Assembly: GCA_023132915.1 (NCBI GenBank)
Contig: JAGLXM010000075.1
Location: 1,165-65,164, forward strand
DNA from: Candidatus Bipolaricaulota bacterium
GTDB lineage: Bacteria; Bipolaricaulota; Bipolaricaulia; UBA7950; UBA9294
Direction of reading: 5' to 3'
Length of the DNA: 64,000 nucleotides
The stretch's first letter is position 1, and every line of letters starts with the position of its first letter. Position numbers and translations under genes: made by a program. Shown piece after piece: positions 18,763-59,499 of the stretch. The notes under the pieces are model-generated. The model did not search any database. It was given only the letters and a program-made list of their open reading frames with translations, and was not told the DNA's origin.

Positions 18763-18774
18763 CCGAAATATAGT

Positions 18775-28069: not shown

Positions 28070-28086
28070 ACGGGAGGAGGGGTGTC

Positions 28087-29684: not shown

Positions 29685-29697
29685 AGGAGATATCCGG

Positions 29698-30861: not shown

Positions 30862-30983
30862 GGTGGTGGAAGTGGATAGAAGTGCCTTTGCATAGGTCTT
30901 TTTTTGAAATACTAAGCACTCCAAATACAATGGTCTGCTCAAGATGCATAACTTGATTTTGGCAACGTTGAGAAGGAGGAGTA

Positions 30984-32090: not shown

Positions 32091-32592
<502 letters not shown>

Positions 32593-40696: not shown

Positions 40697-40797
40697 GGAA
40701 ATTGTTGAGTAGTTGAGTGGGAAAAGCGAAGGAACGGAGGGCCAGGTGAAGAGGGAAATGGTTAAGTGGAGGAGTGGTTGAGTGGGAGGAATGGATG
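40687..40797. repeat. GTTGAGTRG-word low-complexity repeat; left terminal inverted repeat of the gmd|fcl insertion
   Basis: agttgagtagggaaattgttgagtagttgagtgggaaaagc .. ggttaagtggaggagtggttgagtggg. Its outer part is the reverse complement of 42006-42039. It supplies the gmd stop codon. Confidence 0.65.
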
Positions 40798-41262
40798 AGT
40801 CCACGTCGTCTATATCTAGACACCAGTGTCTATAACCGACCCTTCGATGGCCTCTCACAAGCACGAGTCTGGCTCGAAGCGTTAGCCTTCGCTACTATAC
40901 TGCAGATGATTGAATTGGGCGGTGTAGAATTAGTAAGCTCTGAGGTATTAGAGTTTGAGAACAGCAGGAATCCCTTTTCCCATAGAAGGGCGTGGGTAAG
41001 CTTTTATCTGAGTTTGGCCAAAGATTACCAGGAATTGGATGAGTCGATCCGTAAGCGAGCGCAAGGTTTGGAAAGCAAGAGATTGGAACCACTCGATGCT
41101 TTACATCTGGCCTGTGCAGAGGGAGCTGAGGCTGAATATTTCATAACCTGCGATGATCGGATCATAAAGAGATACCAAGGGGAAGCACTGAAAGTGATGA
41201 ACCCCGTGAATTTTGTGATCAGTGAGGTGATAGGAGATGGCGGAGATCAAGGTGAACAGTGA
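40795..41262 (+). CDS. PIN-like domain protein (putative toxin)
   Basis: About 155 aa. LYLDTSVYNRPFD.. N-terminal acidic motif, ..DALHLACAEGAEAEYFITCDDRIIKR.. C-terminal PIN-like motif. Confidence 0.6.
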   Translation: MSPRRLYLDTSVYNRPFDGLSQARVWLEALAFATILQMIELGGVELVSSEVLEFENSRNPFSHRRAWVSFYLSLAKDYQELDESIRKRAQGLESKRLEPLDALHLACAEGAEAEYFITCDDRIIKRYQGEALKVMNPVNFVISEVIGDGGDQGEQ

Positions 41263-41452
41263 TCAGGAGATCCTTCGAGAGGCCGAAGAGGTGCTGCGGG
41301 TACATCTGGGTCCGGCCAAAGCGACTCGCTTTTGGATCGCTCTAGGCGGTGGGGCTGGAGACTACCTGCAAATTAAAGAAACGCTCTTCAAAGGCGAGAC
41401 TGTCGATACCCTGTACGAGAAAATAGCAGAGCAGAAGGGGGAGGAGAGATAG
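41237..41452 (+). CDS. Small partner protein of the PIN gene (putative antitoxin, uncharacterised family)
   Basis: 71 aa. Overlaps the PIN gene by 26 nt. A paralogous 3' end occurs at 2..187. Confidence 0.45.
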   Translation: MAEIKVNSDQEILREAEEVLRVHLGPAKATRFWIALGGGAGDYLQIKETLFKGETVDTLYEKIAEQKGEER

Positions 41453-41535
41453 TTAAGTAGGAAAATAGTTGAGTGGTTATGTGGGGCAGTGGAACTATTC
41501 AACGATTTAACTAATCAACCACTTAACTAATCCCA
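41451..41535. repeat. Imperfect palindrome of GTTRAGTRG words immediately 5' of the four-helix-bundle pseudogene
   Basis: agttaagtaggaaaatagttgagtggttatgtgggg ... ttaactaatcaaccacttaactaatccc. The two arms are reverse complements (tagttgagtggtt versus aaccacttaacta). Confidence 0.65.
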
Positions 41536-41536
41536 G

Positions 41537-41911
41537 ATGAAATCGACGTCGACCTTTGAAGATCTCGAAGTCTGGTAAAAGGGAAGAGAGTTAAGGAAAG
41601 ACTTTTCGCAATTAGTCAGGCGACTTCCCCCTGATGAGAAGTTTCGACTAGCCGACCAGATTCTCCGTGTCTCGCGATCGGTTACGGCCAACATAGCCGA
41701 AGGATACGGCAGGTTTTACTATCAAGAGAACATCCAGTTCTGCCGTCAGGCCAGAGGCTCATTGTTTGAGTTGGTGGATCACCTTACTGTAGCCTTTGAC
41801 GAGGGTTACGTCGATGAGGAGAAGTTTGGAGGGTTTAGAGAGCGAGTCTTCGAGATTATTCGTATACTAAATGGCTATATCAAGTATCTGAAAGGAAGGA
41901 AGAACAGTTGA
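41537..41911 (+). pseudogene. Four-helix-bundle protein gene (23S rRNA IVS protein family) with an in-frame TAA at codon 14
   Basis: MKSTSTFEDLEVW*KGRELRKDFSQLVRRLPPDEKFRLADQILRVSRSVTANIAEGYGRFYYQENIQFCRQARGSLFELVDHL.. . Absent from the ORF track because there is no Met after the stop. Confidence 0.8.
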
Positions 41912-41920
41912 GGACAACAC

Positions 41921-42040
41921 AGTCGAGTGGGAAAATGGTTAAGTGGTTATGTGGGGGAACGGTCTTACTTGACTACTCAACTACTCGACAATTTTACCTT
42001 GCACTGCTTTTCCCTACTCGACTACTTAACTACTCAACTC
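41921..42040. repeat. Imperfect palindromes of GTTRAGTRG words 3' of the four-helix-bundle pseudogene; right terminal inverted repeat of the insertion
   Basis: gtcgagtgggaaaatggttaagtggttatgtggggg .. cttacttgactactcaactactcgac .. gcttttccctactcgactacttaactactcaact. 41927-41961 is a direct repeat of 41457-41491. Confidence 0.65.
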
Positions 42041-42051
42041 TGTGCTCATAG

Positions 42052-43056
<1,005 letters not shown>

Positions 43057-43065
43057 GGAAGAATA

Positions 43066-44373
43066 GTGGCTTTCGAAAAGGTAATCCGCGTTTTACACTT
43101 GGTTTTGCGAACAACATATGGTTCAATTATAGATTCCTTACTTTCTATAATGAGATTTCAGGTGCATGGGAATGGAGGTAAGAGGACGAAAACGGATAAT
43201 CAAGTACCGCGTGTGATCTTCCTAAACCAGGTGGCTGGACTTCTGTTTTGGGAGCTAGCGGAAGACTTAGCTGAAGCTATTGGTCCCTGCTTTCTCTACA
43301 CTGGGCAGAATTGCATCAGGAGAAGGACTGTGCCCAATCTGCAGGTAGTAGGAGCGCCTTCCTATGAGCGCGATGGGTATCGTCACCGCGTGTTATGCTG
43401 GATGCGATACTTTTTCTTTGTCCTCTACCGTGTCTGGCGGCAGCCACGCATTGCTCTACTTTTTGTCGTCTCTAACCCACCGTTTCTGCCATTAGTGGGT
43501 TACCTGATGCATCGATTGCGAGGGCAATCCTATGTGATGCTGGTCTATGATATTTATCCTGAGCTAGCTGTTTGTCTCGGAAAGTTATCTGAACATGGGA
43601 TCCTTACCCGCTTGTGGCGATGGATCAATAAAGTGGTGTGGGAAAACGCCGAAGTGGTTTTCACCATCGGTGAACATATGGCCATTCAGTTAAAAAGCAT
43701 AGTCGACTCCCGCCAAACTCGTTTGGGACACGTAGCTGTTATTTCTAACTGGGCTGATCAAGATTTCATCAAGCCTTTGCCGAAATCAGAGAACTGGTTT
43801 GCACAGAAATATGGGCAAGTGGATAAGCTGACCGTTCTTTACTCCGGCAACTTAGGTGCTACCCATGATTTGGGGACAATGTTGGCTGCAGCAAGTCGCT
43901 TAAGGTATTTAAGTGACATCCATTTTCTTATCATCGGCGAAGGATATAAGCAGGCTTTTTTGGAGGAATCCATTCAGCGGAAGAATCTCGTGAATGTTAC
44001 ACTGTTGCCGTTTCAGCCAGAAGAAGTTTTGCCTTATTCCCTTACAGCTGGAGACGTGGCGGTGATAACATTAGCGGAAGGGGCCGAAAAACTATCTTTC
44101 CCAAGTAAAACTTTCTATGCAATGGCCAGCGGGGCCGCCTTGTTGTGCGTGTGCGCTGGCGACAACGACTTAAGAGATCTGGTAGTTCGGCACGAATGCG
44201 GTATTTGTGTTGAACCAAGTGATGTGGATGGCTTTATTCACGCTGTCGAGAAATTTCACTACGATAGAGAATTCCTGGCATACTCTCGAAGGAACGCACG
44301 GAAGGCAATGGAAACTTATTACACTCGGCGCAATACAAAGAGGTACCTAGACGTTCTTGGTAAACTGAGATAA
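43066..44373 (+). CDS. Glycosyltransferase family 4 (WcaI/WbuB-like)
   Basis: 435 aa, GTG start in the track, GT-B C-terminal half ..VLYSGNLGATHDL..FLIIGEG.. . Start uncertain. Confidence 0.7.
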   Translation: MAFEKVIRVLHLVLRTTYGSIIDSLLSIMRFQVHGNGGKRTKTDNQVPRVIFLNQVAGLLFWELAEDLAEAIGPCFLYTGQNCIRRRTVPNLQVVGAPSYERDGYRHRVLCWMRYFFFVLYRVWRQPRIALLFVVSNPPFLPLVGYLMHRLRGQSYVMLVYDIYPELAVCLGKLSEHGILTRLWRWINKVVWENAEVVFTIGEHMAIQLKSIVDSRQTRLGHVAVISNWADQDFIKPLPKSENWFAQKYGQVDKLTVLYSGNLGATHDLGTMLAAASRLRYLSDIHFLIIGEGYKQAFLEESIQRKNLVNVTLLPFQPEEVLPYSLTAGDVAVITLAEGAEKLSFPSKTFYAMASGAALLCVCAGDNDLRDLVVRHECGICVEPSDVDGFIHAVEKFHYDREFLAYSRRNARKAMETYYTRRNTKRYLDVLGKLR

Positions 44374-44433
44374 AGCTTATGAGGACGCTGCCTTTGTCCT
44401 GGAGACGATATAAGGGATTATGATGATCGGCAG

Positions 44434-45109
44434 ATGAAGAGCAGAGCATTTCAGCAGGTAATCAAGCGGACTTTCGACCTCATAGCAAGTCTTGTCGGCC
44501 TCATCCTCTTGGCCATTCCCTTCGCTCTCATCGCCCTGGCGATCAAGCTTGATTCTAAGGGGCCCGTATTTTTCAGGCAGGAGCGGGTGGGGAAAGATGG
44601 CCGAATTTTTAAGCCCTGGAAGTTCCGAACGATGGTCGTGGGGGCGGTGGAGCAGGGGCTAGGTTATAACGTTGCCAAGGACGACCTGCGGATCACCGGG
44701 GTTGGACGATTCCTACGCGAGTGGGGTCTGGACGAGCTGCCCCAGCTTATTAACGTTCTGAGGGGGGAGATGAGCCCTGTAAGCCTTCGCCCAACTTTGA
44801 AATATCAGGTTGACCATTACGATGACTCCCAGCGCAGGCGGCTTCTGGTCAAACCAGGAATTGCCGGTTGGGCCCTTATCCACGGACGAAATCTTCCCTC
44901 TTGGAAAGAGCGCATCAAGTACGGCGTTCTGGTATGTAGAGCATCGGACAATTTGGCTTGATTTTTGGATTATGCTCAAGACGCTCTGGGTTGTGTTGAT
45001 CAAACGAGAAGGTATTTACGGAGAGACTGGAATGAACGACCCCTTTGTTGAACCATTGTCTCCTAAACGCAGAAATGGGGTGTGTGGAGAACAAACTCAT
45101 GAACACTGA
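44434..45109 (+). pseudogene. PglC/WbaP-type phosphoglycosyltransferase (bacterial sugar transferase) inactivated by a +1 frameshift and motif loss
   Basis: Collinear with the intact copy 52117..52776. VGPRP is changed to VSLRP. An extra nucleotide near 44927 (tacggcgttctgg versus tacgacgtctgg) shifts the frame, and the rest of the protein is read in ORF 44810..45109. Confidence 0.85.
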
Positions 45110-45551
45110 GATCAACGTGCTCTTCATCAGTTCCGGGCGGCGGGTAGAGCTACTTCGTGCTTTCATGCAGGCCTACCATGACCTCAACTCTTGTTAGAGG
45201 ATAGTTGCAGTCGACATCGATCCACTTGCGCCAACATTGCAGGTCGTAGATCGTTTCTATGCCGTTCCGTGTACTTTTGACCCCGAGTACATTTCAACCC
45301 TTGTGGAAATCTATCAACGCGAGCACGTAAACTTGGTTTTCCCGTTGACGGATATTGATATACCCCTGCTGGCAAAACGGTGAGCTGAGCTCGAGGCAAC
45401 TGGGGCATTGGTGGTGGTTGTATCATAAGAGGCTACTGATGTAGTGGCTGATAAGTGGAAAACTGACCAGTTGTTTCGCAAGCTTGAGGTACCCACCCCG
45501 TCACTATACTCTCGGCTGAAGTCCTGCATGACCTTGAAGCGGACGGCGTAA
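45099..45551 (+). pseudogene. N-terminal remnant of an ATP-grasp enzyme (paralog of 53902..54885) with three in-frame stops
   Basis: MNTEINVLFISSGRRVELLRAF..SC*RIVAVDIDPLAPTLQVVDRFYAVP..NLVFPLTDIDIPLLAKR*AELEATGALVVVVS*EATDVVADKWKTDQLF.. parallels MRVLVTGAGALLGQGII..EIVAVDPDPRAVGLYWADKACLVP..IADDKWLTYEFL. Confidence 0.6.
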
Positions 45552-45986
45552 TCTGAGCTGGAGTAGGCTCCCAACCCCAGGCGATCGGGCAGCCATGCAG
45601 GGCGCGGTCAATTGGAAGCGCATCGCATTCGACCTTCTCATTTTCGCATGGGGACTGCTTGTCTTCCCGTTCGCCTTGGGATTCCGGCCTTGGTTTGGCA
45701 TCTCACACATCCTGGATCAGGTGTATGCTGGGTGGTATAGGCGACCTTCTACTCTCCTTAACCCAGGGGATACGTGGGATGATCCTTCTCACATGGACCC
45801 GGCGAAATTACCCATCCGAGACGATCCTCGCGTCATGGCCGCAGGCGTTCGGGGCGTCTCTCGCTCCTCGTAGTGTCAGGCTCCCTCATCGCCATCTTGG
45901 CCCACTCCGATTGACGATCTGACTGGTTTGCATCAGTATGAGATAAACGATGCACTCATCGAGCTGAGCGAGCAGAAGGAGCTGAC

Positions 45987-47294
45987 ATGGCGGTGTCCCG
46001 TTTCTTGAGATTCAAACCGAGCAAGTCACCAGCGGAGATTGACCGCGTGCTGCGATACCTGATCCGCCACGCGCGCAGGAACGTCGAGGGCTATCGTTGC
46101 GTCCTGGACGAAGCGGGTGCCTCCCCTGCAAACATCCACGGAGTTGACGACCTCTCCCGACTTCCCATTGTCAGCAAGGAAACGCTGTTTCGGCGGGTGC
46201 CGCTGCGTCACACGCTCCATCGCCTCGCGAATCCCTCCCGATGCGTTCGCGTCGGGACGAGCGGTTCGACGGGACTGCCCCTGAACGTTTTCATGAGTCG
46301 AGGGGAGGCTTTGTATCGGCGGTTGTTGGTGTTCCGTTCTTGGCAGCGTTTGAGCAGCTTCCGGTTCCCGCTCAGCGTGGCGGATGTTGGCTCTTGGGTT
46401 GAGGATGAGGCACCGATGAGCATTCAACACAGGGGCATTGTTACCGTTGTGAGAATATCGATCGCGCTTCCGGTGGAGCGTCAGATCGAGCTGCTGAGGC
46501 GCCATCGACCTCAGATCATCTCCGGGTACCCTACAGCATTGAGCATCCTTGCCGAAGCCCCGCAAGGGGGCTCCGATCTTTCTTCACTGCGGCTTGTAGC
46601 GACGCGTGGAGAGGTCCTGTCCGAGGAGACGAGGAAGACCCTTGAAGCGTCGTTTGGCTGTCGTGTGGCCGACTACTACAACTGTGAAGAGATCGGCAAC
46701 ATTGCGTGGGAGTGCCCGAAGGACTCGGAGGTTCTTCACATTAACACCGACGGATGTGTGGTGGAGATTGTTGATTCGCGTGGCCATCCGGTTCGCGATG
46801 GAGAGGAGGGGCGCGTGATCGTGACCAATCTCTATAACTGCACCATGCCATTCATCCGATATGATCTCGGCGACCAAGGCGTAATGATCAGCTCCAGACG
46901 GGATCGTTGCGCTTGCGGCAGTCAACACCCACGGATGGCTGTTCTGAGTGGACGGGATGACGACTACGTACACCTGCCCGATCAGCGAAAAGTGTCCCCG
47001 CGTTTGGTCGCTACGGCTGTCAATCGTGCCTTCTCAGGGGAGTCTCCCCTTGGGGGATTCGACCGTCACTTTAGAAGATTTCAAGTCGTTCAAGACGCTC
47101 TGGATCACCTAACCATTCGCATCGTTCCCGAGGCGGAACGTCTCAGCGACTTCCACGAGGTTATTGCTCCCGCGTTGAGGAGACTGCACCCGGGACTGCA
47201 CTGCTCGATCGAGGTGGTGGATGATCTCCCGCTTGAGCCGTCGGGCAAATTCAAGAAAGTGATCTCCAGCATTAGACGACCGGACACATCCTAG
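45987..47294 (+). CDS. Adenylate-forming enzyme of the phenylacetate-CoA ligase / CapK / F390-synthetase family (copy 1)
   Basis: 435 aa. ..RVGTSGSTGLPLNVFMS.. (P-loop-like), ..YYNCEEIGNIAWEC.., ..PSGKFKKVIS (C-terminal Lys). Confidence 0.8.
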   Translation: MAVSRFLRFKPSKSPAEIDRVLRYLIRHARRNVEGYRCVLDEAGASPANIHGVDDLSRLPIVSKETLFRRVPLRHTLHRLANPSRCVRVGTSGSTGLPLNVFMSRGEALYRRLLVFRSWQRLSSFRFPLSVADVGSWVEDEAPMSIQHRGIVTVVRISIALPVERQIELLRRHRPQIISGYPTALSILAEAPQGGSDLSSLRLVATRGEVLSEETRKTLEASFGCRVADYYNCEEIGNIAWECPKDSEVLHINTDGCVVEIVDSRGHPVRDGEEGRVIVTNLYNCTMPFIRYDLGDQGVMISSRRDRCACGSQHPRMAVLSGRDDDYVHLPDQRKVSPRLVATAVNRAFSGESPLGGFDRHFRRFQVVQDALDHLTIRIVPEAERLSDFHEVIAPALRRLHPGLHCSIEVVDDLPLEPSGKFKKVISSIRRPDTS

Positions 47295-47561
47295 GTGTCT
47301 TCCCGATGAACGTAAGTCCCGCGGGGATCTCCGACCTTCTTGATCCGTTCGTAATGTGAGCAACGCTGAACGGTTGAAGCTCTCTCTTTTCGGAACGATC
47401 AGCGAAGGGCCGTGGTGACCCAGATCGGTCGGCAACTTGTCTTGTCACCTTCCGTCGTATAGGCTTGAGCGGGTGTAAACGATACCGTCATCCAATCGGG
47501 GAGCGATACAGGAACTCGGCAAAGCAAACTTGGCTTCAGAAGGAGCGGTAAGGGGAGCGGA

Positions 47562-48227
47562 ATGGGAATCGCCATTGTGGGTGCCGGTGGACACGGTCGA
47601 GTCGCGTTTGAATGTCTTCGTCTTTCGCGTTCAGATAATCCCGATGTTGTCTTCTACGATGATCGATACGAGCAGATTGGTGAGATCGAAGGGATTCCCG
47701 TGCGCGGTCCGATCTCTGCGTTGTTCGACGCCGATAAATTCGAGCTAGTCTTCGTCGCAATCGGGGACAACGTGCTGCGGTACGAGATCACGCAACGGCT
47801 CCAGCGAGCCGGGAGAACCTTGATCTCGATCATCCATCCGCACACAGCCATCTCTCCGCGATCACGGATCGCCGTGGGGACAATCGCCGTTGCGGGAACC
47901 GTGGTCAACTTCGGTGCTCAAGTTGGCCGAGGGGTGATCTTGAACACGCTCAGCTCGGTGGGACACGACTGCATCGTTCAGGATTTCGCTCAATTGGCCT
48001 CCGGAGTCAACCTGGGCGGAGCCGCTGTTATCGAGGAGGGCGTGTTCGTTGGGATCGGTGCGAAGGTTGCCCCGGAGACCACTATTGGGGCCTGGTCTGT
48101 AGTTGGGGCAGGTTCGATCGTGCTCGAGGATCAACCTCCTCGTTCATTCTGTTGCGGTGCGCCAGCGCGTGTGATTCGGCCGCTCGGAGATGATGAGCTC
48201 CCACACCCGAAAGGATCATCCACCTAG
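47562..48227 (+). CDS. NeuD/PglD-family sugar N/O-acyltransferase (left-handed beta-helix)
   Basis: 221 aa. N-terminal IAIVGAGGHGRV Rossmann-like, C-terminal hexapeptide repeats ..VGHDCIVQDFAQLASGVNLGGAAVIEEGVFVGIGAKV.. . Confidence 0.8.
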   Translation: MGIAIVGAGGHGRVAFECLRLSRSDNPDVVFYDDRYEQIGEIEGIPVRGPISALFDADKFELVFVAIGDNVLRYEITQRLQRAGRTLISIIHPHTAISPRSRIAVGTIAVAGTVVNFGAQVGRGVILNTLSSVGHDCIVQDFAQLASGVNLGGAAVIEEGVFVGIGAKVAPETTIGAWSVVGAGSIVLEDQPPRSFCCGAPARVIRPLGDDELPHPKGSST

Positions 48228-48267
48228 TTTGGTCATATCGAGGCTCACGAACTGGTGAGGTTCTGAA

Positions 48268-49575
48268 ATGGGAATGGTTGGCCGGCTGACTCGCTTCAAA
48301 CTGCGAAAGACTCCCGCAGATATCGGGCGAGCATTACGCTTTGTCATCTCCGATGCGGGTGCGAACGTTCCCTACTACCGTACCGCGTTCGAGGGAGCGG
48401 GGGTCGTACCGGCGCAGGTCAAATGCGTCGAGGATCTTCCCAGGTTCCCAATGACGGACCGGGACAGGCTCCTCGCGAGCGGACATGAAGGGCACCTTAG
48501 GCGCGGTGTCGATCGGCAATCCCTGTTCAAGAGACACACATCTGGAACGTCAGGGACGCCGATCACAGTGTATATGAATCGTGCAGAATCTCTGTTCCGA
48601 AAAGCGTCTTTGATCGACTCGTTCCGCCGCAACGCCAGGCTCGGATTCCCGATGGCGTTGGTCGATGTCGGGGGGGATCGCGAGTCAGACTCAAAGGACA
48701 TTGTGCAGCGACTCGGGCTCGTCAACGTTGTTCGAATTGTACGATCTCTCCCGATGGGAGAGCAGGCCGAGCGCCTTCGCCAAGTGAATCCGACCGTAAT
48801 CGAGGGAAGACCGAGCATGCTGTGCGTACTGGCGCAGGAGCTTTCGAGGCAGGGCATCGATTCAGTGCGCCCCAAGCTGGTGGTTTCCTTCGCTGAGGTG
48901 TTGTATCCACACGTGAGGAAGTTGCTCCAAGACACGTTCTCCTGCCGTGTGGCCGACTACTACAACTGCCAAGAAGTTGGGAACATCGCCTGGCAGTGCC
49001 CCGAAATCCCCGACCGAATGCATGTGAACCCGGCTACGGTCGTACTGGAGGTGGTCGACGAACAGGGTGAGCCCGCCCCCTGCGGGAAGGAGGGCCGCGT
49101 CCTTGTCACGAACCTCTACAACACCACCATGCCGTTCATCCGCTATGAGATTGGAGATCGGGGGGCGCTCTTAGAATCGACGAGGTGTTCTTGCGGCTTC
49201 GTTGGCCAGACGATGCATCTCATCGGGGGTCGGGACGAGGATTTCTTCGTGTTGCCAGACGATCGAGAGATCTCCCCGAGGGTCATCTATGCGATTGTGG
49301 TACATGGTTCGCCCCTACACGGCTTGGGCAATGAGTTTTACCGTGCCGTACGGGCGTTCCAGATCGTACAACAGGAGCGCGATCTGATTGTCGTCAGGGT
49401 GGTTCCCGGACCGGCCTACTCCCGAGGCCTTTGGAAGAATTTGGATTCAAACTTCAAGGCGCTTCACCCTTCCATGCGCGTGCAGGTCGTGGAGGTGGAG
49501 GATCTACATCCGGGGCCCGGAGGCAAATTCAAACAGGTTTTGAGTCGGGTAGCGCGCGCTAGAGGCACATCGTGA
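48268..49575 (+). CDS. CapK/phenylacetate-CoA ligase-family adenylate-forming enzyme (copy 2)
   Basis: 435 aa, collinear with copy 1. ..HTSGTSGTPITVYMN.., ..YYNCQEVGNIAWQC.., ..PGGKFKQVLS. Confidence 0.8.
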   Translation: MGMVGRLTRFKLRKTPADIGRALRFVISDAGANVPYYRTAFEGAGVVPAQVKCVEDLPRFPMTDRDRLLASGHEGHLRRGVDRQSLFKRHTSGTSGTPITVYMNRAESLFRKASLIDSFRRNARLGFPMALVDVGGDRESDSKDIVQRLGLVNVVRIVRSLPMGEQAERLRQVNPTVIEGRPSMLCVLAQELSRQGIDSVRPKLVVSFAEVLYPHVRKLLQDTFSCRVADYYNCQEVGNIAWQCPEIPDRMHVNPATVVLEVVDEQGEPAPCGKEGRVLVTNLYNTTMPFIRYEIGDRGALLESTRCSCGFVGQTMHLIGGRDEDFFVLPDDREISPRVIYAIVVHGSPLHGLGNEFYRAVRAFQIVQQERDLIVVRVVPGPAYSRGLWKNLDSNFKALHPSMRVQVVEVEDLHPGPGGKFKQVLSRVARARGTS

Positions 49576-49599
49576 AGCGGACGTCGTGGTTGTCCTGCT

Positions 49600-49969
49600 C
49601 TAAGATACATCGCTGTACAAGTACGGGGTCTCTCTCAACAAGCTGTTCGATTACATGGCGGGCGGGGGAGCCCGCCGCGCTGGGTGGGCAGATCGCATAC
49701 AAGTACGTCGAATGTGCAGGTTGCGAAATACGGTCCTGCCGTGATCGCCGAGGCGCTCGCCGATGGAGCGTCACGAGATGGGCTTGCGCAGTCGGGAGTA
49801 CGTACTTGCCACAGCTGGAGTCTGTTGGCCGAGCAGCTCGCTCCGGGGTGAGTCTCGGGGGTGGAGCGATCGTGGAGGAGGCCGGATCGGTAGTACTAGA
49901 GGGTGTTCCGCCTTGGGTCTTCTGCTATGGAACGCCCGCTCGTTCGGTGGGACAGTTGGAAGAACCACA
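49600..49969 (+). pseudogene. Degenerate remnant of a second NeuD/PglD-like acyltransferase
   Basis: The tail ..SGVSLGGGAIVEEAGSVVLEGVPPWVFCYGTPARSVGQL resembles ..SGVNLGGAAVIEEG[..]GAGSIVLEDQPPRSFCCGAPARVIRPL of 47562..48227, with an internal deletion. Upstream parts are recognisable only in other frames. Confidence 0.5.
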
Positions 49970-51320
49970 ATGAAACTAGGTGCATGCGTAAGAAGGTTAG
50001 GGTTTTCCGTCTGGGATCGGCTGCATGGAGCTCCGGTCCACCACCACCTGGAAGAGTTAGAGCAAGCTCAGACCGTGAGTCCTGAGGAGCTTGAGCTCTG
50101 GCAGAGAGAGCGACTGTACGCTCTGCTATGTCACGCGCGGGACACGACTGACTTTTACCGCCAGCTCATCCCCCAGGACTTGTCGCCAGAAGAGAGCTTT
50201 AACGTCGTGCATGCCCTACCTCTCATGACCAAGGCTCAGATCAAAGCTGATCCTGAAGCCTTTATGGCAGGTGCCTTTCCCCCGCACGAGGCTCCATCGG
50301 GGCACCACCAGCGGGTTCACTGGGACGCCATTCGTGTTTTGGATGGACCGCAACCGGAGAGCTCGCGTGCGCGCGGAGATCTTGTACTTTGGACGCTGGG
50401 CGGGATATGAGATCGGAATGCGTCACTGCTACCTGCGCTACCTGTTTGGTCGGCCCAAGGGGTTCCTGCAACGCTGGCTAGAGAACCAACTCATCATTGA
50501 CACTACCTCCGTGGACGAGGCCAAGCTGGAGAAGATCCGGACCCTGCTCACTCGCTCAAGGACGCAAGTGCTTATCAGTCATCCCTCGGTGTTGAGCCTC
50601 CTAGCTCAGCACTGCCTCCGCCGGGGGATTCCTTTTCGGGATTTCTCTATGAGGGCGGTCATCTCCGTGGGGGAGCCCCTGCTGCCCGAAACTCGGGCCT
50701 CTATCGAGGACGCCTTCGGATGCCCGGTCTTCGATCGCTACAGCGCATGGGAGTTTGGGGTGATCGCGAGCGAGTGCGAGAGGCAACAATTGCATCTCAA
50801 CGCAGGAAGTCTGTACATCGAATTCCTCCCTCATGAGGGTCACCGCCCCACTGCGGCTGGAGAGCCTACTCGGTTCGTTGTGACCGACTTGTTCAACTAT
50901 GAAATGCCGTTCATCCGCTATGAGATTGAGGACGTAGTGGTGCTGGATAGAAAGCCTTGTCCCTGCGGTCGTAAGTCTCCCCTCCTCAAAGGCGGTCTAC
51001 GGCCGTGGGTCGATCAGATCACGTCCCCAAACGGCGCATGGCTGGACCCGCTGGGCATCGAAGCCATGTTGTGAGATCTCCATGAGATCCGACAGTTTCA
51101 GTTCGTCCAACAGTCTCAGAGTAGCTATATGATCAAGGTGGTCCCGGACGAAGGGTTTGACGAAGCGGACGTTCAGAAGATTGTGCGCCGTTATCAAGAG
51201 GTGTTGGGTCCGGAGGCGATGATTAAGGTCGAGGAGGTGAATGAGATTCTGCCGTTACCCTCGGGCAAGTGGTCCTATATCCGCTCTGAGGTCCGAGAGG
51301 CACAGATCGATGAGACTTAG
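49970..51320 (+). pseudogene. CapK/phenylacetate-CoA ligase-family gene (copy 3, different subtype) broken by at least two frameshifts
   Basis: Three successive frames carry the N-terminus (MKLGACVRRLGF..TDFYRQLI..), the core (..TTSGFTGTPFVFWMD..FDRYSAWEFGVIASEC..PCPCGRKSPLLK..) and the C-terminus (..FQFVQ..IKVEEVNEILPLPSGKWSYIRSE). Confidence 0.7.
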
Positions 51321-51525
51321 ATGCGTGGAAGTTCTCAAGATGGAACCATTGAGGGGACGTATGGGATATACTCTGACCGGATTTCGTCCGCTTCTCTCGT
51401 GGAGCTTATCACGTCATGTATGAGATCTTGAGGGCTAAGAACCGTGAAGATCTGAAGGTTGGAAAGTGTGAATGGGGGAAGGCTTGTCGAGTGGTTCCTA
51501 GAGGAAAAAGCGGAGGTTCCTCCGA

Positions 51526-51708
51526 ATGAGCTCTCAGCTATTCCTTAAGCGAGGGTTAGACTTTACTATAAGTTTTGTCGGGCTCATCCTCCTTGCTATG
51601 CCCTTTGCCATCATCGCTCTAGCGATCAAGCTCGACTCCAAGGGCCCAGTTTTCTTCAGGCAGGAGGGGACCAGAGGTTGTCTTGAGCATGGTGACTTGC
51701 TATCTTAG
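51526..51708 (+). pseudogene. 5' stub (about 46 codons) of a third PglC-type phosphoglycosyltransferase copy
   Basis: MSSQLFLKRGLDFTISFVGLILLAMPFAIIALAIKLDSKGPVFFRQE matches the N-termini of 44434.. and 52117.., then diverges to a stop. Confidence 0.8.
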
Positions 51709-51746
51709 AGGTGCCGTTAAATCATCGGCCTAAAGGAGGGAGCAAT

Positions 51747-52013
51747 ATGCCCTTGAAATTGATTAGAACCGAGAGAACAAGCGAGGAAGATCTGCAGAGG
51801 TTCAAGGCGGATCAGGAGGACTTTGAGTGGCTTGTCAGGCATTCGCGAGAGATTGAAGAGCAGTCTAAGGGGAAATATATCGCTGTCGTGAATAAAGAGG
51901 TCTTTGTGGGAGATAGCTTTGAGGAAGCGGAGCAGAAGGCTAAGGCAAAATATCCGGAGCGCGATTCCTATGTGGAATTCATCCCGCTGAAGCCGCGGGT
52001 GATGGTTCTATGA
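51747..52013 (+). CDS. Small hypothetical protein (DUF5678-like pattern)
   Basis: 88 aa from ATG 51747 (RBS aaaggaggg). ..WLVRHSREIEEQSKGKYIAVVNKEVFVGDSFEEAEQKAKAKYPERDSYVEFIP.. . Family assignment is from memory of the pattern only. Confidence 0.45.
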   Translation: MPLKLIRTERTSEEDLQRFKADQEDFEWLVRHSREIEEQSKGKYIAVVNKEVFVGDSFEEAEQKAKAKYPERDSYVEFIPLKPRVMVL

Positions 52014-52120
52014 TCTTCCACGGCCGATACCGTGTCGCCATCTTCGACAGGGGCAAAGATGATGTGATCCTGCTCGACCATCCGGATAGCTACCGAATCG
52101 AACGCTCTCTTGAAAGATGA
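52010..52120 (+). CDS. 36-codon ORF coupled by ATGA overlaps to both neighbours
   Basis: MIFHGRYRVAIFDRGKDDVILLDHPDSYRIERSLER. ATG 52010 overlaps the upstream stop, and its TGA 52118-52120 overlaps ATG 52117 of the sugar transferase. Confidence 0.3.
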   Translation: MIFHGRYRVAIFDRGKDDVILLDHPDSYRIERSLER

Positions 52121-52776
52121 AGGGTTCCATCGGTTTGCCTGTTCAGCTAATTCTAAAACGGCTTGTCGATATCCTGCTAAGCCTCATTGGGCTTATCCTC
52201 TTGATTGTTCCCTTCGCTGTGATCGCCCTGGCGATGAAGCTTGACTCCAGGGGCCCAGTGTTCTTCCGGCAAGAGCGTGTGGGAAAAGATGGCAGGGTAT
52301 TTAAGCCTTGGAAGTTCCGCACGATGGTTGTTGGGGCGGTGAAGCAAGGGCTGGGTTACAACATCGCTCAGGGTGATCCGCGGATTACTAAGGTTGGGCG
52401 GTTCTTGAGAAGCTGGGGGGTAGATGAACTTCCCCAGCTCATCAATGTGTTGAAGGGCGAGATGAGCATCGTCGGCCCGCGGCCGACCTTAAAATACCAG
52501 GTCGAGAGGTACAACGACTTCCAACGCAAACGTCTTCTGGTCAAGCCTGGGATCACCGGCTGGGCCCTGATCCATGGGCGAAATCTTTTGACCTGGGAGG
52601 AGCGAATCAAATACGACGTCTGGTATGTAGATCATCGGACAATCTGGCTTGATCTTTGGGTCATGCTCAAGACGTTATGGGTGGTGCTGATCAAGCGGGA
52701 AGGGGTCTACAGCTCAGAAGGGATCAATGACCCATTTGTGACACCGCCTCAGGAAGGGCCACCCCATGATGTGTAA
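52117..52776 (+). CDS. Undecaprenyl-phosphate sugar phosphotransferase, small monotopic PglC/WbaP-C type (intact copy)
   Basis: 219 aa. ..GPVFFRQERVGKDGRVFKPWKFRTM.., ..DELPQLINVLKGEMSIVGPRP.., ..KPGITGWA.. . Confidence 0.9.
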   Translation: MKGSIGLPVQLILKRLVDILLSLIGLILLIVPFAVIALAMKLDSRGPVFFRQERVGKDGRVFKPWKFRTMVVGAVKQGLGYNIAQGDPRITKVGRFLRSWGVDELPQLINVLKGEMSIVGPRPTLKYQVERYNDFQRKRLLVKPGITGWALIHGRNLLTWEERIKYDVWYVDHRTIWLDLWVMLKTLWVVLIKREGVYSSEGINDPFVTPPQEGPPHDV

Positions 52777-53179: not shown

Positions 53180-53905
53180 ATGAGTACGCACAAAAAGCAA
53201 ATGTTCGCCCGGTTTCTTGATTTGAAATGGCCTGATATCAACTGTGATATGCATTTGCATACGACCAGAACTGATGGCAAAGCTGACATTAAGGACGTAA
53301 TGCATTACGCGGTGGAGCGGGGTCTGAGCCGAATTGCATTCACTGAACATGTGCGGAGAGATACTCAGTGGTTTCAGGAATTTACCCGCCAAGTTCGGGC
53401 TGAGCAAAAGGCGTATCCGCAGTTAGAGGTTCTGGTTGGTTGTGAAGCCAAAGCTCTCGATACGGAGGGCTTGTTGGATGCGACAGATAAGATACTCGCT
53501 GAGTGTGACATCGTGCTGGGTAGCGTACATCGCTTTCCGGATGGTCGGGGTGGATATATTGGTTTTTCCTCTCTGTCTCAGGAACACTTTGCGCAGATCG
53601 AGTTTGAGTTGGCAGTTGGATTGTTGGGTGCTGCTCCTATTGATGTATTGGCTCATCCTGGAGGTATGTACTTCAGGCGATACACTGATTTCCCCTCTGC
53701 TATGATGCGAGAGATTCTTAAACAAAGCCTAGAACGAGGAATTGCGGTAGAGATCAATACTTCCTACATCCAGAATCTACCTGGTTTTCTAAGGCTTTGT
53801 GTTGAAATTAATCCTTATGTATCGATTGGATCCGATATGCATCGTCTAGAACAACTTGGCGAGTGCCGAGATCGGTTGCATGCACACGGGGTCGGTTTCT
53901 CATGA
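53180..53905 (+). CDS. PHP-domain metal-dependent phosphoesterase (HisJ/histidinol-phosphatase-like)
   Basis: About 241 aa. ..CDMHLHTTRTDGK..IAFTEHV..GSVH..LAHPG.. PHP motifs. The track ORF starts at 53042; ATG 53180 is likely. Confidence 0.75.
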   Translation: MSTHKKQMFARFLDLKWPDINCDMHLHTTRTDGKADIKDVMHYAVERGLSRIAFTEHVRRDTQWFQEFTRQVRAEQKAYPQLEVLVGCEAKALDTEGLLDATDKILAECDIVLGSVHRFPDGRGGYIGFSSLSQEHFAQIEFELAVGLLGAAPIDVLAHPGGMYFRRYTDFPSAMMREILKQSLERGIAVEINTSYIQNLPGFLRLCVEINPYVSIGSDMHRLEQLGECRDRLHAHGVGFS

Positions 53906-54885
53906 GAGTGCTAGTTACTGGAGCTGGTGCGTTGTTGGGACAAGGGATTATCAAGAGCCTGCGTATGGCCCCTACCCAGTATGAAATTGTAGCTGTGGAC
54001 CCGGATCCACGCGCCGTAGGGTTATATTGGGCGGATAAAGCATGCCTGGTACCACTTGCTGCCAATCCGGGCTATTTTGACGGAATCTGCCAAGTTATTG
54101 ATCGCGAGCGGCCTGAGGCAGTACTAGTGGGAACAGATGTTGAGTTGATGGTGTTGGCGATTCACAAGTCACAGATTGAATCGGCCTACAATACGCGGGT
54201 AATCGTGAGTCCTCCAGATGTAATCCGAATCGCCGATGATAAATGGTTGACTTATGAGTTTCTGGCATCCAACGGATTTCCATATCCGCAATCGTCATTG
54301 TCTGATAGCATTTCCGGCCTATTGCGGCGGTGTGATTTCCCGTTGGTCGTGAAACCACGAGTGAGCGCTCGTTCTGTCGGAGTATACAAGGTAAGGAATG
54401 AGCAGGAGTTGAATCGGGCATTGAGCCAGGCTCAAAACCCCATTATCCAGGAGTGTGTTGCGACACCGGAAGAGGAGTACACTAGCGGAATTGTTGTCAC
54501 CGATGGGATCGTCAGGGCTATTGTAACAATGCGCCGTGACTTGCGGGATGGCAACACATATCGTGCCTATGTTGAACCCAACGCTCCTTTCAATGGTCTA
54601 TTAGCGAAGATTGCTGAGAAATTGGGTGGACTCGGCCCTCTTAACTTTCAATTTAGGCTTGATCGGGGTGTTCCGAAGATTTTCGAGATTAACGCTCGAT
54701 TCTCTGGAACTACCCCACTGCGTGCCTGTGCGGGTTTCAATGAGGTGGATAGTGTAGTTCGTCATTATGTATTGGGTGATCCGATTCCCGATCCTGCTTT
54801 ACGCCCTGTGGTAATATTCAGGTATTGGGATGAAATTGTCATCGAGCGAACTCAGTTGGCCGCTTTTTCTGATGAGCAGAGATAA
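53902..54885 (+). CDS. ATP-grasp domain protein (carbamoyl-phosphate-synthase L-chain-like ligase)
   Basis: About 327 aa. MRVLVTGAGALLGQG.., ..PLVVKPRVSARSVGVY.., ..IFEINARFSGTT.. . ATGA overlap with the PHP gene. Confidence 0.8.
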   Translation: MRVLVTGAGALLGQGIIKSLRMAPTQYEIVAVDPDPRAVGLYWADKACLVPLAANPGYFDGICQVIDRERPEAVLVGTDVELMVLAIHKSQIESAYNTRVIVSPPDVIRIADDKWLTYEFLASNGFPYPQSSLSDSISGLLRRCDFPLVVKPRVSARSVGVYKVRNEQELNRALSQAQNPIIQECVATPEEEYTSGIVVTDGIVRAIVTMRRDLRDGNTYRAYVEPNAPFNGLLAKIAEKLGGLGPLNFQFRLDRGVPKIFEINARFSGTTPLRACAGFNEVDSVVRHYVLGDPIPDPALRPVVIFRYWDEIVIERTQLAAFSDEQR

Positions 54886-54918
54886 GAGAAAGCCGAAGTT
54901 CGAGCGCATAACCCGTAT

Positions 54919-55836
54919 ATGAAGCGTATATTAGTCACGGGGGCTTCGGGTCTTCTTGGAGCCACAGTTGTCAAGACCTTGATAAATTCAGATTACTCTG
55001 TAGTGGCAGCGTGTCGTACGCTTGACTCAGCTCCTTTGGTTGGCGACATTCAGGTCATAACACTGGACCTGTTAAACGAAAAAGATTGGGCTAGTCTTCC
55101 TAAAAACATTGACGCAGTTGCACATTGTGCTGCATATGTCCCTACACGTTTCAACGACGCGGCAATGTCCGATACTCTGTGGAGAGTAAATGGTCTAGGA
55201 ACTCTTAAGCTCTTGAAATGGGCAAAAGAGAATGGCGTTGCTCAGTTCATCTACTGCTCATCCCACTCAATCTATCGGCGTCCAGCTCCCTATCCAATTA
55301 CTGAAGAACATTCTGTGTATCCATCCGGGGGGACAGCGTACTATGCTATAAGCAAACTTGCTGGTGAAGTCTTTGCAAGCTGTATGCGCAGTGATAGCTT
55401 TAATGTCTGTAGCCTGCGCATGCCCTCTTTGTATGGTGCGCGGATGAAAAAGTCCGGGGTGCTATATCACTTTGTGACTCAGGCACGTGCGGGTAAGACT
55501 ATCAAGATCATGTCGTCCCTCGATAGCCTATTCGATTTTCTCTATGTGCAAGACGCTGCCTATGCTATTCAGTTATGTCTTGCAAAATCTCCAAAGCAAG
55601 CTTATTACAATATCGGTTCTGGTAAAGCCATAACCCTCAAAGAATTGGCTGAAGCGTGTTGGGCAATCTTTGCACCGCACTCCCCCGTCAGTATATTTAT
55701 TGAAGCGGACGAGACCGCTCCGATATATAATGTCCTCGACATCTCTCGGGCACAGCGAGAGTTGGATTATCAGCCTGCTTTTGACATTTGGACTGGGTTG
55801 CGGGATATGAAGGCGCATCAAGAGGAGAAGCTTTGA
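54919..55836 (+). CDS. NAD-dependent epimerase/dehydratase (SDR)
   Basis: 305 aa. ILVTGASGLLG and YAISKLA (YxxxK). Confidence 0.8.
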   Translation: MKRILVTGASGLLGATVVKTLINSDYSVVAACRTLDSAPLVGDIQVITLDLLNEKDWASLPKNIDAVAHCAAYVPTRFNDAAMSDTLWRVNGLGTLKLLKWAKENGVAQFIYCSSHSIYRRPAPYPITEEHSVYPSGGTAYYAISKLAGEVFASCMRSDSFNVCSLRMPSLYGARMKKSGVLYHFVTQARAGKTIKIMSSLDSLFDFLYVQDAAYAIQLCLAKSPKQAYYNIGSGKAITLKELAEACWAIFAPHSPVSIFIEADETAPIYNVLDISRAQRELDYQPAFDIWTGLRDMKAHQEEKL

Positions 55837-56826: not shown

Positions 56827-58041
56827 GTGAATATTCCACTAGCTAGACCGGATATCGCCAAGGAGGAGATCGAGGCGGTCGTTGCTGTCCTCAGAACGCC
56901 CCACCTTGCTCTCGGGCCTAAGCTAAAGGAGTTCGAGGATGCGATCGCTGAATATTCTGGCGTTCGTTATGTCGTGGCCGTGAACAGTGGCACGAGTGCC
57001 CTGCACCTTATCATTCGCGCACTGGGGATCGGTGCCGGTGATGAGGTGATCACTACCCCGTTCAGCTTTATCTCCTCGTCCAATTGCATCCTTTTTGAAA
57101 GGGCAAAGCCGGTCTTTGTCGATATCGAGCCGAAGACTCTCAACATCGATCCCGAACGGATCGAGGAGGCGATCACACCAAAGACCAAGGCGATCCTGGC
57201 CGTTGATGTGTTTGGCCATCCGGCCGACTGGCCGGCGCTGGAGCAACTGGCAGAGAGACACAACGTGTTGTTGGTCGAGGATTCCGCGGAAGCGCTTGGG
57301 TCTAAGTTGGACGGGAAGCGTTGTGGCTCGTTCGGTCGGGCCGGAATCTTCGGCTTTTACCCCAATAAGCAGATCACGACCGGCGAAGGCGGTATCATTG
57401 TTACCGACGATGCGGAGCTCGCGGCTCTGTGTCGATCCATGGCCAACCAGGGCCGCGGAGATGGAGACGCCTGGCTAAGCCACGTTCGTTTGGGCTACAA
57501 CTACCGCATGGACGAGATGTCGGCCGCATTGGGACTGGCGCAGCTTTCCCGGATTGAGGAGATCGTTGCCGCCCGCGCCCAGGTGGCTGTGTGGTACGCG
57601 GAGGCGTTGGAGCGGGTTGACGGAGTTAAGGCGCCCTTTGTGGCGCCGGACGTAACGATGAGTTGGTTTGTGTACGTAGTTCGGCTCGATGAGGGATTCA
57701 CTCGCGAGGATCGAGATCGGATCTTAAAAGGCCTCCGCGATGCGGGCATCGAGTGTCGCAATTACTTCCCCCCAATTCATTTGCAGCCGTTCTATCGAGA
57801 AGCCTTGGGGACTAAGGAAGGGGACTTTCCGATCACCGAATCCGTAGCCGCACGGACGATCGCTTTGCCATTCTACAATAAACTCACTAAGGATGAAGTA
57901 AGCTACGTCGTGGACAATCTAGCCGATATACTGAAATGTTACCACTTGGGGGATGTAGCAAATCTCAAATCGCTACTACACCCCCCGAGGGCGCAGAGAT
58001 CGCAGAGAACGCGGAATCCGCAAAGAAGTCGTCAAATCTAG
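56827..58041 (+). CDS. DegT/DnrJ/EryC1/StrS-family sugar aminotransferase (PglE-like) with a repeat-derived C-terminal tail
   Basis: 404 aa, GTG start. ..NSGTSALHL.., ..FGFYPNKQITTGEGGIIV.. . The last ~30 aa (..GDVANLKSLLHPPRAQRSQRTRNPQRSRQI) are encoded by palindromic/low-complexity DNA. Confidence 0.85.
   Translation: MNIPLARPDIAKEEIEAVVAVLRTPHLALGPKLKEFEDAIAEYSGVRYVVAVNSGTSALHLIIRALGIGAGDEVITTPFSFISSSNCILFERAKPVFVDIEPKTLNIDPERIEEAITPKTKAILAVDVFGHPADWPALEQLAERHNVLLVEDSAEALGSKLDGKRCGSFGRAGIFGFYPNKQITTGEGGIIVTDDAELAALCRSMANQGRGDGDAWLSHVRLGYNYRMDEMSAALGLAQLSRIEEIVAARAQVAVWYAEALERVDGVKAPFVAPDVTMSWFVYVVRLDEGFTREDRDRILKGLRDAGIECRNYFPPIHLQPFYREALGTKEGDFPITESVAARTIALPFYNKLTKDEVSYVVDNLADILKCYHLGDVANLKSLLHPPRAQRSQRTRNPQRSRQI
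57945..57992. repeat. 48-nt palindromic element (single unit) in the DegT 3' end
   Basis: cttgggggatgtagcaaatctcaaatcgctactacaccccccgagggc. It shares both ends (CTTGGGGG.TGTAG.AA and ACTACACCCCCCGAGGGC) with the 90-nt element at 62746-62835. Confidence 0.75.
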
Positions 58042-59267: not shown

Positions 59268-59499
59268 GTTTTCCCGAGATGCGCCTAAGAGGAAGGTCCT
59301 TAAAGCTTTCAAGGAGCTGAGGTTTGAGATCGTTAGAGAGGCTGACCACATTGCCCTCAGGCGACATAACCCTGATGGGTCCACGACGCCGATGACCATC
59401 CCCAACCATCGAACCTATAAAAGCAGCACCCTGCGGGAGATCTTGACTCAAGGCAGAATTCCCAGGGATGACTTTCTAACGGCTTACTACAAATCATGA
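59260..59499 (+). CDS. hicA: HicA-family toxin (YcfA-like)
   Basis: 79 aa. ..KRKVLKAFKELRFEIVREADHIALRRHN..MTIPNHRTYKSSTLREILTQGRIPRDDF. Overlaps hicB by 8 nt and the capD-like start by ATGA. Confidence 0.7.
   Translation: MSKFSRDAPKRKVLKAFKELRFEIVREADHIALRRHNPDGSTTPMTIPNHRTYKSSTLREILTQGRIPRDDFLTAYYKS

Follow-up and report, generated by a model that had tools for sequence, protein, structure and literature searches.

CapK-type ligases are very common in glycan loci, yet genetic evidence for their function exists for VpsH only. Genetics of this PaaK-related, CapK-like protein of Vibrio cholerae show that the glycine amide on GulNAcA in the lipid-linked Vibrio polysaccharide (VPS) disaccharide depends on it (PMC13463779, 2026), and we found no further CapK-like glycan enzyme with a documented function in the literature. 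Here we analysed a 64-kb stretch of DNA from a Candidatus Bipolaricaulota bacterium, hereafter the window, which is part of a cold-seep metagenome scaffold (ENA scaffold L001). Two intact genes for such adenylate-forming ligases, lig1 and lig2, enclose a gene for a NeuD/PglD-type N-acyltransferase and lie next to the remains of a second acyltransferase-ligase pair, the ligase gene of which we call lig3. Throughout, L-numbers designate compared loci or strains, X-numbers public metagenome runs or populations, and P-numbers proteins of the ligase family. The VpsH/VpsG system is comparable in that VpsH is encoded in a Wzx/Wzy glycan cluster and acts together with VpsG, a hexapeptide-repeat acetyltransferase, on one sugar. 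The transferase is different, however: VpsG is WcaB-like and adds an acetyl group (PMC13463779), whereas the one described here is of the NeuD/PglD type and has a PglD_N domain. The locus also differs in that two ligases flank the transferase, that the context is one of PglC/E/F-type amino-sugar synthesis, and that no uronic-acid gene is found nearby.

The Staphylococcus aureus type 1 CapK, namesake of the CapK_C domain (PF27533), shares with these ligases the adenylate-forming type and a capsule- or O-antigen-type locus, a likeness based on CapK_C matches only. Precomputed CapK_C matches exist for lig1 and for a 63-aa C-terminal piece of lig3; unlike CapK, lig2 has no recorded match, and a fresh Pfam scan matched none of the three. 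To our knowledge, no activity has been demonstrated for CapK itself. Enzymes of the ClxA/NatL2 type couple an adenylated acid to a nucleophile without coenzyme A (CoA). Among proteins of solved structure, ClxA (PDB 9S3L, 9S45) is closest to lig1 in sequence (E 4e-29); it was crystallised with 3-amino-4-hydroxybenzoate and with its adenylate; NatL2 (6SIW-6TM4) was also solved with aromatic acid substrates. Both act on aromatic acids in natural-product pathways and, unlike lig1, have no glycan context. The best structural match of the lig1 model is to PaaK1/PaaK2 (PDB 2Y27, 2Y4N, 2Y4O; Foldseek E 1e-26, TM score ~0.6), which have the same shortened ANL architecture and motifs but are only 20-23% identical; no paa catabolic genes are present here and the context is that of a glycan. 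The acyltransferase has the two-domain architecture of PglD, PglB-ATD and PerB (PDB 3BSS, 4M98, 4EA7), its best PDB matches, and conserves the catalytic His of GHDC. It differs from canonical PglDs, to which it is 29-40% identical, in belonging to a ligase-associated subfamily. Finally, the small PglC-type phosphoglycosyltransferase (PGT), DegT aminotransferase and PglF dehydratase of the window recall the PglC-PglD-PglE-PglF pathway to di-N-acetylbacillosamine of Campylobacter and Neisseria, and the ligase genes of two related loci (L028 and L098) sit inside exactly such a PglC/D/E/F operon. Unlike the pgl pathway, the window has PHP, ATP-grasp and epimerase genes in place of the PGT-adjacent PglD, and additional ligases.

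Taken as one statement, the evolutionary reading given below combined with CoA-independent amide ligation is in our view moderately probable. Its evolutionary and structural part, according to which the region is a recombination-prone glycan stretch with a live trio of genes among the remains of earlier cassettes, appears highly probable. The features on which it is based are listed in Table 1. The initial annotation had proposed two intact 435-aa ligase paralogs with an intact NeuD/PglD acyltransferase between them, and all three genes were indeed found intact. The transferase scored 190 bits with TIGR03570 (cutoff 160.8) and contains PglD_N (PF17836) and Hexapep (PF00132) domains; the two ligases share 40% amino-acid identity (tblastn). 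Purifying selection keeps the genes of the trio intact. Comparison of the window with strain groups L004-L006 and L091-L095 (three strain pairs) gave ratios of non-synonymous to synonymous substitution rates (dN/dS) of 0.15-0.21 for lig1, ~0.2 for NeuD and 0.19-0.28 for lig2. Another Bipolaricaulota locus, L007, has orthologs of all three genes in unchanged order (lig1-PglD-lig2, 62/60/54% identity), with overlaps of 4 bp between genes, and the PglD and lig2 orthologs of L010 overlap as well. Thus, judged by gene order and sequence, lig1-PglD-lig2 is a conserved three-gene tailoring module in Bipolaricaulota metagenome-assembled genomes. The ligase-associated PglDs are 51-69% identical among themselves, compared with 29-40% to the canonical PGT/DegT-adjacent PglDs of the same loci, which indicates that they form a distinct subfamily.

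Table 1. Features of the locus and lesions of lig3 (window coordinates)
Feature	Position	Strand	Evidence or carriers
PGT pseudogene (PglC-type Bac_transf), full length	44434..45055	+	tblastn, DNA alignment, PF02397
ATP-grasp pseudogene, N-terminal ~155 codons, 3' truncated	45084..45581	+	blastx to L024/L091 ATP-grasp, E 8e-15/3e-12
Block shared with L004/L005/L006, 4.05 kb, 93.8% nucleotide identity	45514..49547	.	blastn
lig1, CapK/PaaK-family adenylate-forming ligase, 435 aa, intact	45987..47294	+	PF00501 58 bits; precomputed CapK_C; motifs; AlphaFold2/Foldseek
Spacer, 267 bp, non-coding	47295..47561	.	strain conservation
NeuD/PglD-type N-acyltransferase, 221 aa, ligase-associated subtype, intact	47562..48227	+	TIGR03570 190 bits
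lig2, CapK/PaaK-family ligase, 435 aa, intact	48268..49575	+	NCBIfam, tblastn, motifs, tree
Second PglD-type acyltransferase remnant	49576..49970	+	tblastn to L098 PglD
lig3 pseudogene, CapK-family, third clade	49970..51320	+	DNA alignment with L096/P0157 and L091
lig3 lesions, +7 and -1	50095 and 50299		X4 only
lig3 lesion, extra C	50279		window lineage only
lig3 lesion, -1	50954		salt-marsh L091-L095/X5, marine-sediment X19; these without all other lesions
lig3 lesions, pair +A / -T	50988 / 51007		window, subsurface X4, sediment X12
lig3 lesion, TGA	51072		window, X4
PGT 5' stub, ~47 codons, ends after FFRQE where DUF5678 segment begins	51526..51666	+	tblastn
DUF5678 small gene between stub and intact PGT	51747..52013	+	PF18929
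Intact PglC-type phosphoglycosyltransferase, 219 aa	52117..52776	+	PF02397 224 bits
PHP phosphoesterase + ATP-grasp ligase + NAD-dependent epimerase, where related loci (cf. L006) have PglD	53201..55836	+	gene calls, Pfam
DegT/PglE-type aminotransferase	56827-58041	+	Pfam
PglF-type 4,6-dehydratase	59496-61352	+	Pfam

The spacer between lig1 and the acyltransferase gene is 94-99% conserved between strains, at least as much as the adjacent NeuD gene, and the corresponding gap in L007 is only 45 bp. No hidden gene remnants were detected by blastx of this spacer, of 51321-51530, of 45560-45990 or of the 5' part of the PglD remnant. In a low-depth sediment metatranscriptome, contigs fell on lig1, lig2, the DUF5678 gene and the 5' end of the PGT gene, and none on 49.6-51.5 kb; this pattern is suggestive only, being weak evidence on an expressed trio versus a silent lig3 stretch.

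On both sides the trio is bordered by remains of other genes. The flanking PGT copies reported previously, a pseudogene, a stub and an intact gene, were all recovered. The product of the PGT pseudogene is 77-79% identical to the intact PGT, in two frames, with a +1 insertion near position 44927 and the conserved motif GPRP changed to SLRP. It is followed by an ATP-grasp pseudogene with at least four in-frame stops that had been overlooked. In the window as in L091, the island has a PGT pseudogene or stub at either end. The window, L091 and L006 share an identical junction of stub and DUF5678 segment, but their stubs differ in the 5' parts. The DUF5678 gene and a tiny open reading frame (ORF) occupy 51711-52120, a region in which L091 has two extra small ORFs.

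Comparison with relatives shows which parts of the arrangement are constant. Strains L004-L006 share with the window the block containing the trio as well as the right junction (51587-52739, 85.5%). In place of the PglD remnant and lig3, however, a glycosyltransferase fragment, a frameshifted ATP-grasp gene and a split epimerase gene separate lig2 from the stub in these strains, and upstream their gene content is entirely different. The block shared with L091 starts later, at 45975 and only 12 bp ahead of lig1, and is immediately preceded in that strain by a different PGT pseudogene. Along the block, the window and L091 show a mosaic of identities (lig1 96-98%, NeuD-lig2 88-95%, pseudogene stretch 97-99%), which indicates that segments of one cassette have different histories. 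We propose that PglC-type PGT genes, in their conserved 5' part, are the sites of recombination through which new cassettes come in, and that old copies are left to decay. The remains of earlier cassettes would be, to the left of the trio, the frameshifted PGT gene and the stop-riddled 5' half of the ATP-grasp gene and, to the right, the second PglD-ligase unit. The earlier idea that recombination between PGT copies shuffles modules fits these data, in that the trio and the stub junction are conserved and the content between them and upstream varies. In runs X1 and X5, contig depth rises several-fold over the conserved PGT 5' segment (51556-51700) and many short contigs diverge on both sides of it, which indicates that many different PGT alleles or loci in these communities share a ~70-bp core.

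Both ligases have the features of adenylate-forming enzymes. With PF00501, lig1 scored 58 bits (cutoff 29.9) and lig2 25.6, below the cutoff; lig2 matched PaaK-type NCBIfam models at E 1e-24 to 1e-30. The A3 motif (TSGSTGxP), the A8 hinge (GRxDD) and the A10 Lys are present in both proteins according to the family alignment, in which T91, G93, G96, P98, G322, R323 and K421 are invariant columns. The AlphaFold2 model of lig1 (pLDDT 88, pTM 0.86) predicts a two-domain PaaK-type fold, and its PDB neighbours in Foldseek are PaaK1 at the top, followed by BT_0428, PaaK2 and ClxA. Since these neighbours include CoA ligases and aromatic-acid-adenylate ligases, the fold alone cannot decide on the use of CoA. 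With the PaaK equivalog TIGR02155, lig1 scored 93 bits and lig2 85 bits, far below the cutoff of 646, so that neither is a phenylacetate-CoA ligase proper. The family is large: at E<=1e-30, lig1 has matches in ~1,400 clusters (50% identity). Residues C243, H251, C308 and C310 of lig1 (window ~46713-46916) form a Cys...His...CxC set that is invariant across a 22-sequence alignment and aligns with the corresponding positions of ClxA; it may be a metal site.

Other members of the family occur in a variety of settings. Its representatives include a glycosyltransferase 4 (GT4)-ligase fusion and many two-ligase fusions of 850-970 aa, P0450 (773 aa) and P0353 (875 aa) being among the fused proteins. 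Locus L097 (GCA_042581325.1) has 7-8 CapK-like paralogs at 2503-20453 together with genes for a Mur ligase, a D-Glu cyclase, an ATPgrasp_ST protein and an ABC exporter, and in L086 six CapK-like ligase genes stand in a row (5644-13969). In L008/L009 (11781-14516), a lig1-clade gene (60% identity) is divergent from CapC-like and Mur_ligase_M (CapB-like) genes, which resemble poly-gamma-glutamate synthase genes and have no glycan genes nearby. The neighbourhoods of distant lig1-clade genes (L016, L022, L023, L026, L031) are mixed, with D-Ala-D-Ala-ligase-like, MiaB-like radical SAM and PKD proteins, and gave no functional clue.

That lig1 and lig2 are CoA-independent amide ligases decorating a PglC/E/F-type amino sugar is a tentative proposal, to which we give somewhat less than an even chance. 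According to this scheme, PglF and the DegT/PglE-type aminotransferase would first make UDP-4-amino-4,6-dideoxy-N-acetylhexosamine. Next, lig1 and lig2 would adenylate carboxylates and form amide bonds directly, without CoA, either placing an amino or organic acid on the sugar amine or joining a sugar carboxylate to an amino acid. The ligase-associated PglD paralog would then acylate the remaining amine of the same sugar residue, and the PglC-type PGT would start the repeat unit on the lipid carrier. DegT and PglF of the window probably supply 4-amino-4,6-dideoxy-N-acetylhexosamine, and this sugar, passed on to the PglC-type PGT, is the likely acceptor as judged from gene content. The PGT gene of the window has no adjoining PglD gene; that of the related strain L006 has one. 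Amide ligation is favoured by the fusions of GT4 to ligase and of ligase to ligase mentioned above, by the genes for Mur-type ligases, a D-Glu cyclase and ATP-grasp enzymes that adjoin CapK paralogs in related loci, by the many lig1-clade genes without a PglD gene within 10 kb, and by a weak match to the amide ligase DdaG. The genetic precedent of VpsH and the sequence relationship of lig1 to ClxA lean the same way.

Several points weigh against this account. The PaaK family comprises both CoA ligases and CoA-independent ligases, so that substrate, acceptor and CoA dependence are not readable from sequence or fold. The likeness to VpsH is based on its published description (PMC13463779), and no uronic-acid gene is found near the trio, the only UDP-sugar dehydrogenase gene of the window lying 33 kb upstream (12378-13664). 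In L010, a family III CoA-transferase gene adjoins the lig2 ortholog; this gene and the distinct PglD subfamily would fit a route via CoA thioesters at least as well. As to the evolutionary part, the PGT copies of the window are 71-85% identical at the DNA level, which is low for homologous recombination among themselves, and recombination between PGT copies is deduced from end states only, with no event caught in progress.

In the route suggested by the initial annotation, one or both ligases make a non-acetyl acyl-CoA and the PglD transfers the acyl group to the C4 amine of the UDP-amino sugar. It is plausible that a ligase of this kind activates a non-acetyl acyl or an aminoacyl group for an amino sugar, given the separate subfamily of ligase-associated PglDs and the position of the modules within PglC/E/F operons. 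The CoA-thioester route in particular is a serious rival, although we consider it rather unlikely; schemes other than these two share what remains. Hexapeptide-repeat (LbH) N-acyltransferases that use larger acyl-CoAs exist, for example AntD and FdtD, and count in favour of this route. The ligases belong to a PaaK-like family with CoA ligases (PaaK1/2, BT_0428) as top structural neighbours; the PglD gene adjoins lig2, and overlaps it in L007 and L010; the separate subfamily formed by the ligase-associated PglDs and the CoA_transf_3 gene of L010 point in the same direction. A single transferase would have no obvious need for two or three different ligases, however, and lig1-clade genes often occur without any PglD gene. 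Moreover, the sole genetic evidence on a CapK-like glycan enzyme, that for VpsH, concerns an amino-acid amide on a carboxylate, no CoA ligase activity is described for ClxA, the closest relative by sequence with a solved structure, and the scores with the PaaK equivalog are low. In addition, the likely non-acetyl acyl-CoA of the pseudaminic-acid-like pathway of the window comes from a thiolase and a ketoreductase, not from a ligase.

Base composition bears on the origin of the island. Its GC content is 0.57-0.60 over ~45500-51000, against ~0.45-0.53 in the immediate flanks, and averages 0.58 against ~0.50 for the whole window. In agreement with the initial annotation the region is thus richer in GC than its immediate flanks, but this does not hold for the locus as a whole. 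The GC content at third codon positions is 0.62-0.69 in the island genes and 0.65-0.70 in the conserved flank genes for PGT, DegT, PglF and GT4, which shows that the contrast is with low-GC neighbours and not with the entire locus. That the island is a recent import from a distant high-GC donor, not native to the lineage, is improbable. The overall difference in GC content would agree with such an import, as would the observation that, beyond the species, even the closest relatives share only 58-65% identity and belong to Bipolaricaulota of higher GC content (L007 0.61, L010 0.65). The third-position values make the low-GC neighbours, and not the island, the outliers, however. Also, the GT4 gene of the flank likewise has Bipolaricaulota relatives (two of them named), and the island is found at 94-98% identity in populations of several habitats. 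Almost every named relative of the ligases and of GT4 is a Candidatus Bipolaricaulota, which makes it probable that the host belongs to this phylum.

The alternation of ligase and acyltransferase genes on one strand, and short conserved motif repeats at ~2.28-kb spacing, could be taken to mean that a single unit underwent recent local tandem duplication to give the three ligases and two acyltransferases, and that its copies decay unequally. This is very improbable. In a neighbour-joining tree lig1, lig2 and lig3 fall into three separate clades, each with Bipolaricaulota orthologs, which indicates that they are ancient paralogs and not recent tandem duplicates. The divergence between lig1 and lig2, and that of lig3, only ~30% identical to either (tblastn), are at odds with a recent duplication, as is the order lig1-PglD-lig2 kept by L007 at 54-62% identity. 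Furthermore, the remnant PglD is closer to the L098 PglD (46%) than to the neighbouring intact NeuD (36%). Recent duplication was rejected on tree and divergence, and the earlier description as "tandem" units is to be dropped: the ligases belong to three old clades, and lig1-PglD-lig2 is itself a conserved module.

The third ligase gene had been described as one of another subtype broken by frameshifts. It is broken and divergent, as stated, but what had been taken for a second frameshift zone is a compensating pair of indels plus a nonsense codon. The intact 449-aa homolog P0157 of locus L096 (76% amino-acid identity) served as outgroup. The first lesion of the window copy is an extra C in a run of C at 50279; the reading frame is thereby shifted immediately ahead of the TSG(S/F)TGTP motif. 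The second and third, +A at 50988 and -T after 51007, compensate each other and turn KAVYGRV into KGGLRPW, so that the GR hinge motif is destroyed; the fourth is a nonsense change of CGA to TGA at 51072-51074. Across at least five natural populations the lesions are independent or nested (Table 1), and lig3 was inactivated at least two times independently. Additional changes were found in L091, C332Y at a family-invariant Cys of the Cys...His...CxC set and F121L, and in the window copy, S100A, all at conserved positions. Between lineages dN/dS of lig3 is 0.49, based on only 8 synonymous and 13 non-synonymous changes, compared with 0.17 to the intact homolog.

Might lig3 nevertheless give a functional protein, by phase variation at the C run or by recoding of the frameshift and the TGA? 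At the first lesion a C4/C5 run differs by a single base, with both states occurring in nature, and X12 has no reading-frame break in the parts covered. Against this, five C residues make a short run for slipped-strand switching, the nonsense codon and the scrambled GR hinge are further lesions of the window copy, its partner PglD is destroyed, and, as weak evidence, the stretch lacks metatranscriptome contigs where lig1, lig2 and PGT are covered. We consider this possibility extremely remote, and a phase-variable or recoded lig3 was rejected on account of the nonsense codon, the lost hinge and the destroyed partner. It is hardly credible that all three ligases are intact and that the lesions arose as errors of sequencing or assembly: the 50279 lesion does lie in a short homopolymer and DNA runs were examined as assembled contigs, but a second assembler (Logan contig L002) reproduces 41299-51698 at 100% identity, one of the four lesions in this single gene is a base substitution to TGA, and the adjoining PglD remnant has lost most of its length. 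Because metagenome populations of other habitats carry different, partly nested lesions, these are real pseudogenes, and error was rejected. The alternative that the frameshifts vanish and the arrangement is fixed is at variance with the data, since the lesions persist in independent assemblies and the arrangement varies among relatives.

The acyltransferase that accompanied lig3 is far more eroded. A degenerate gene had been noted at 49600-49969, and a remnant is indeed present there, within 49572-49973, but it is recognisable only at 49834-49970, in ~45 codons corresponding to residues ~144-160 and ~184-212 (46% identity to the intact PglD of L098, E 1.5e-13). Its N-terminal two thirds are gone, and it also contains an internal deletion of 23 codons and a frameshift near 49845. 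As this structure is the same in the window and in L091, and thus common to both comparable lineages, loss of the PglD predates the split of the lineages and the lesions of lig3. L098 has an intact PGT-PglD-lig3-type arrangement with DegT and PglF nearby, and L028 the order PGT-PglD-lig-lig-DegT-PglF; the arrangement of L098 is likely, from these comparisons, to represent the ancestral form of the decayed unit. We suggest that the second PglD was destroyed first and that its partner lig3, freed from selection, was then inactivated independently in different populations. The successive stages of decay first read from this region thereby hold, with the PglD far more degraded than lig3 and the lig3 lesions nested or independent.

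The remainder of the window is in keeping with a very large biosynthesis locus, with glycan genes throughout its 64 kb: Wzm/Wzt, heptose genes, a UDP-sugar dehydrogenase, a pseudaminic-acid-like set, Wzy, glycosyltransferases, DegT, PglF and a WecA-like GT4. The pseudaminic-acid-like set (21684-32036) comprises a PseB-like dehydratase, a PseC-like DegT, a GFO oxidoreductase, a CMP-transferase, a class-III aminotransferase, a PseG-like protein, a GNAT and NeuB/PseI. Embedded in it are genes for an SDR ketoreductase (28926-29684) and a thiolase (29665-30861), which probably supply 3-hydroxybutyryl-CoA for N-acylation of the nonulosonic acid. An IS4-like DDE transposase of 522 aa is encoded within 32492-34262 on the minus strand and belongs to a 23-member 90% cluster spread over many contigs. 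Directly 3' of it lies a match to the Rfam ALIL pseudoknot (75.9 bits, 32492-32608). This is an odd pairing, as ALIL is normally a frameshift element of IS3. A PIN-domain gene with a small overlapping ORF at 40795-41452, within the glycan locus, is toxin-antitoxin-like. An Rfam search of 44300-52300 gave no match, even at E<=1; a scan for sigma-70-like promoters gave none either, and terminator-like sites were not commoner than in shuffled sequence.

A wider generalisation, that lig1-PglD-lig2 is one instance of a Bipolaricaulota-wide system independent of ribosomes and non-ribosomal peptide synthetases, in which CapK-type ligases working in series assemble amide chains, aminoacyl or short and peptide-like, on surface-glycan sugars that are acidic or of the bacillosamine type, seems doubtful to us. 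If true, each CapK paralog would add one building block, with contributions from Mur-type ligases, D-Glu cyclase and ATP-grasp enzymes; the loci with 6-8 paralogs (L097, L086) and the ligase-ligase fusions would be assembly lines, and the decaying lig3 unit would be the record of a recent loss of one decoration step.

Current views are not overturned by these results: pseudogene-strewn, recombining glycan loci are expected, and the locus is in this respect a fairly ordinary record of cassette swapping. The decay series is nonetheless, by all sequence comparisons made, real and well resolved, and it documents the turnover of surface-glycan cassettes in an uncultured phylum. It amounts to a natural experiment: the acyltransferase was lost first and the ligase was then broken independently in several populations, which argues that the two genes work as a unit. 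For the family of CapK-type ligases, the locus offers a compact conserved trio together with its likely acceptor pathway (PglF, PglE and PglC) in one window, the enzymology of which is testable now.

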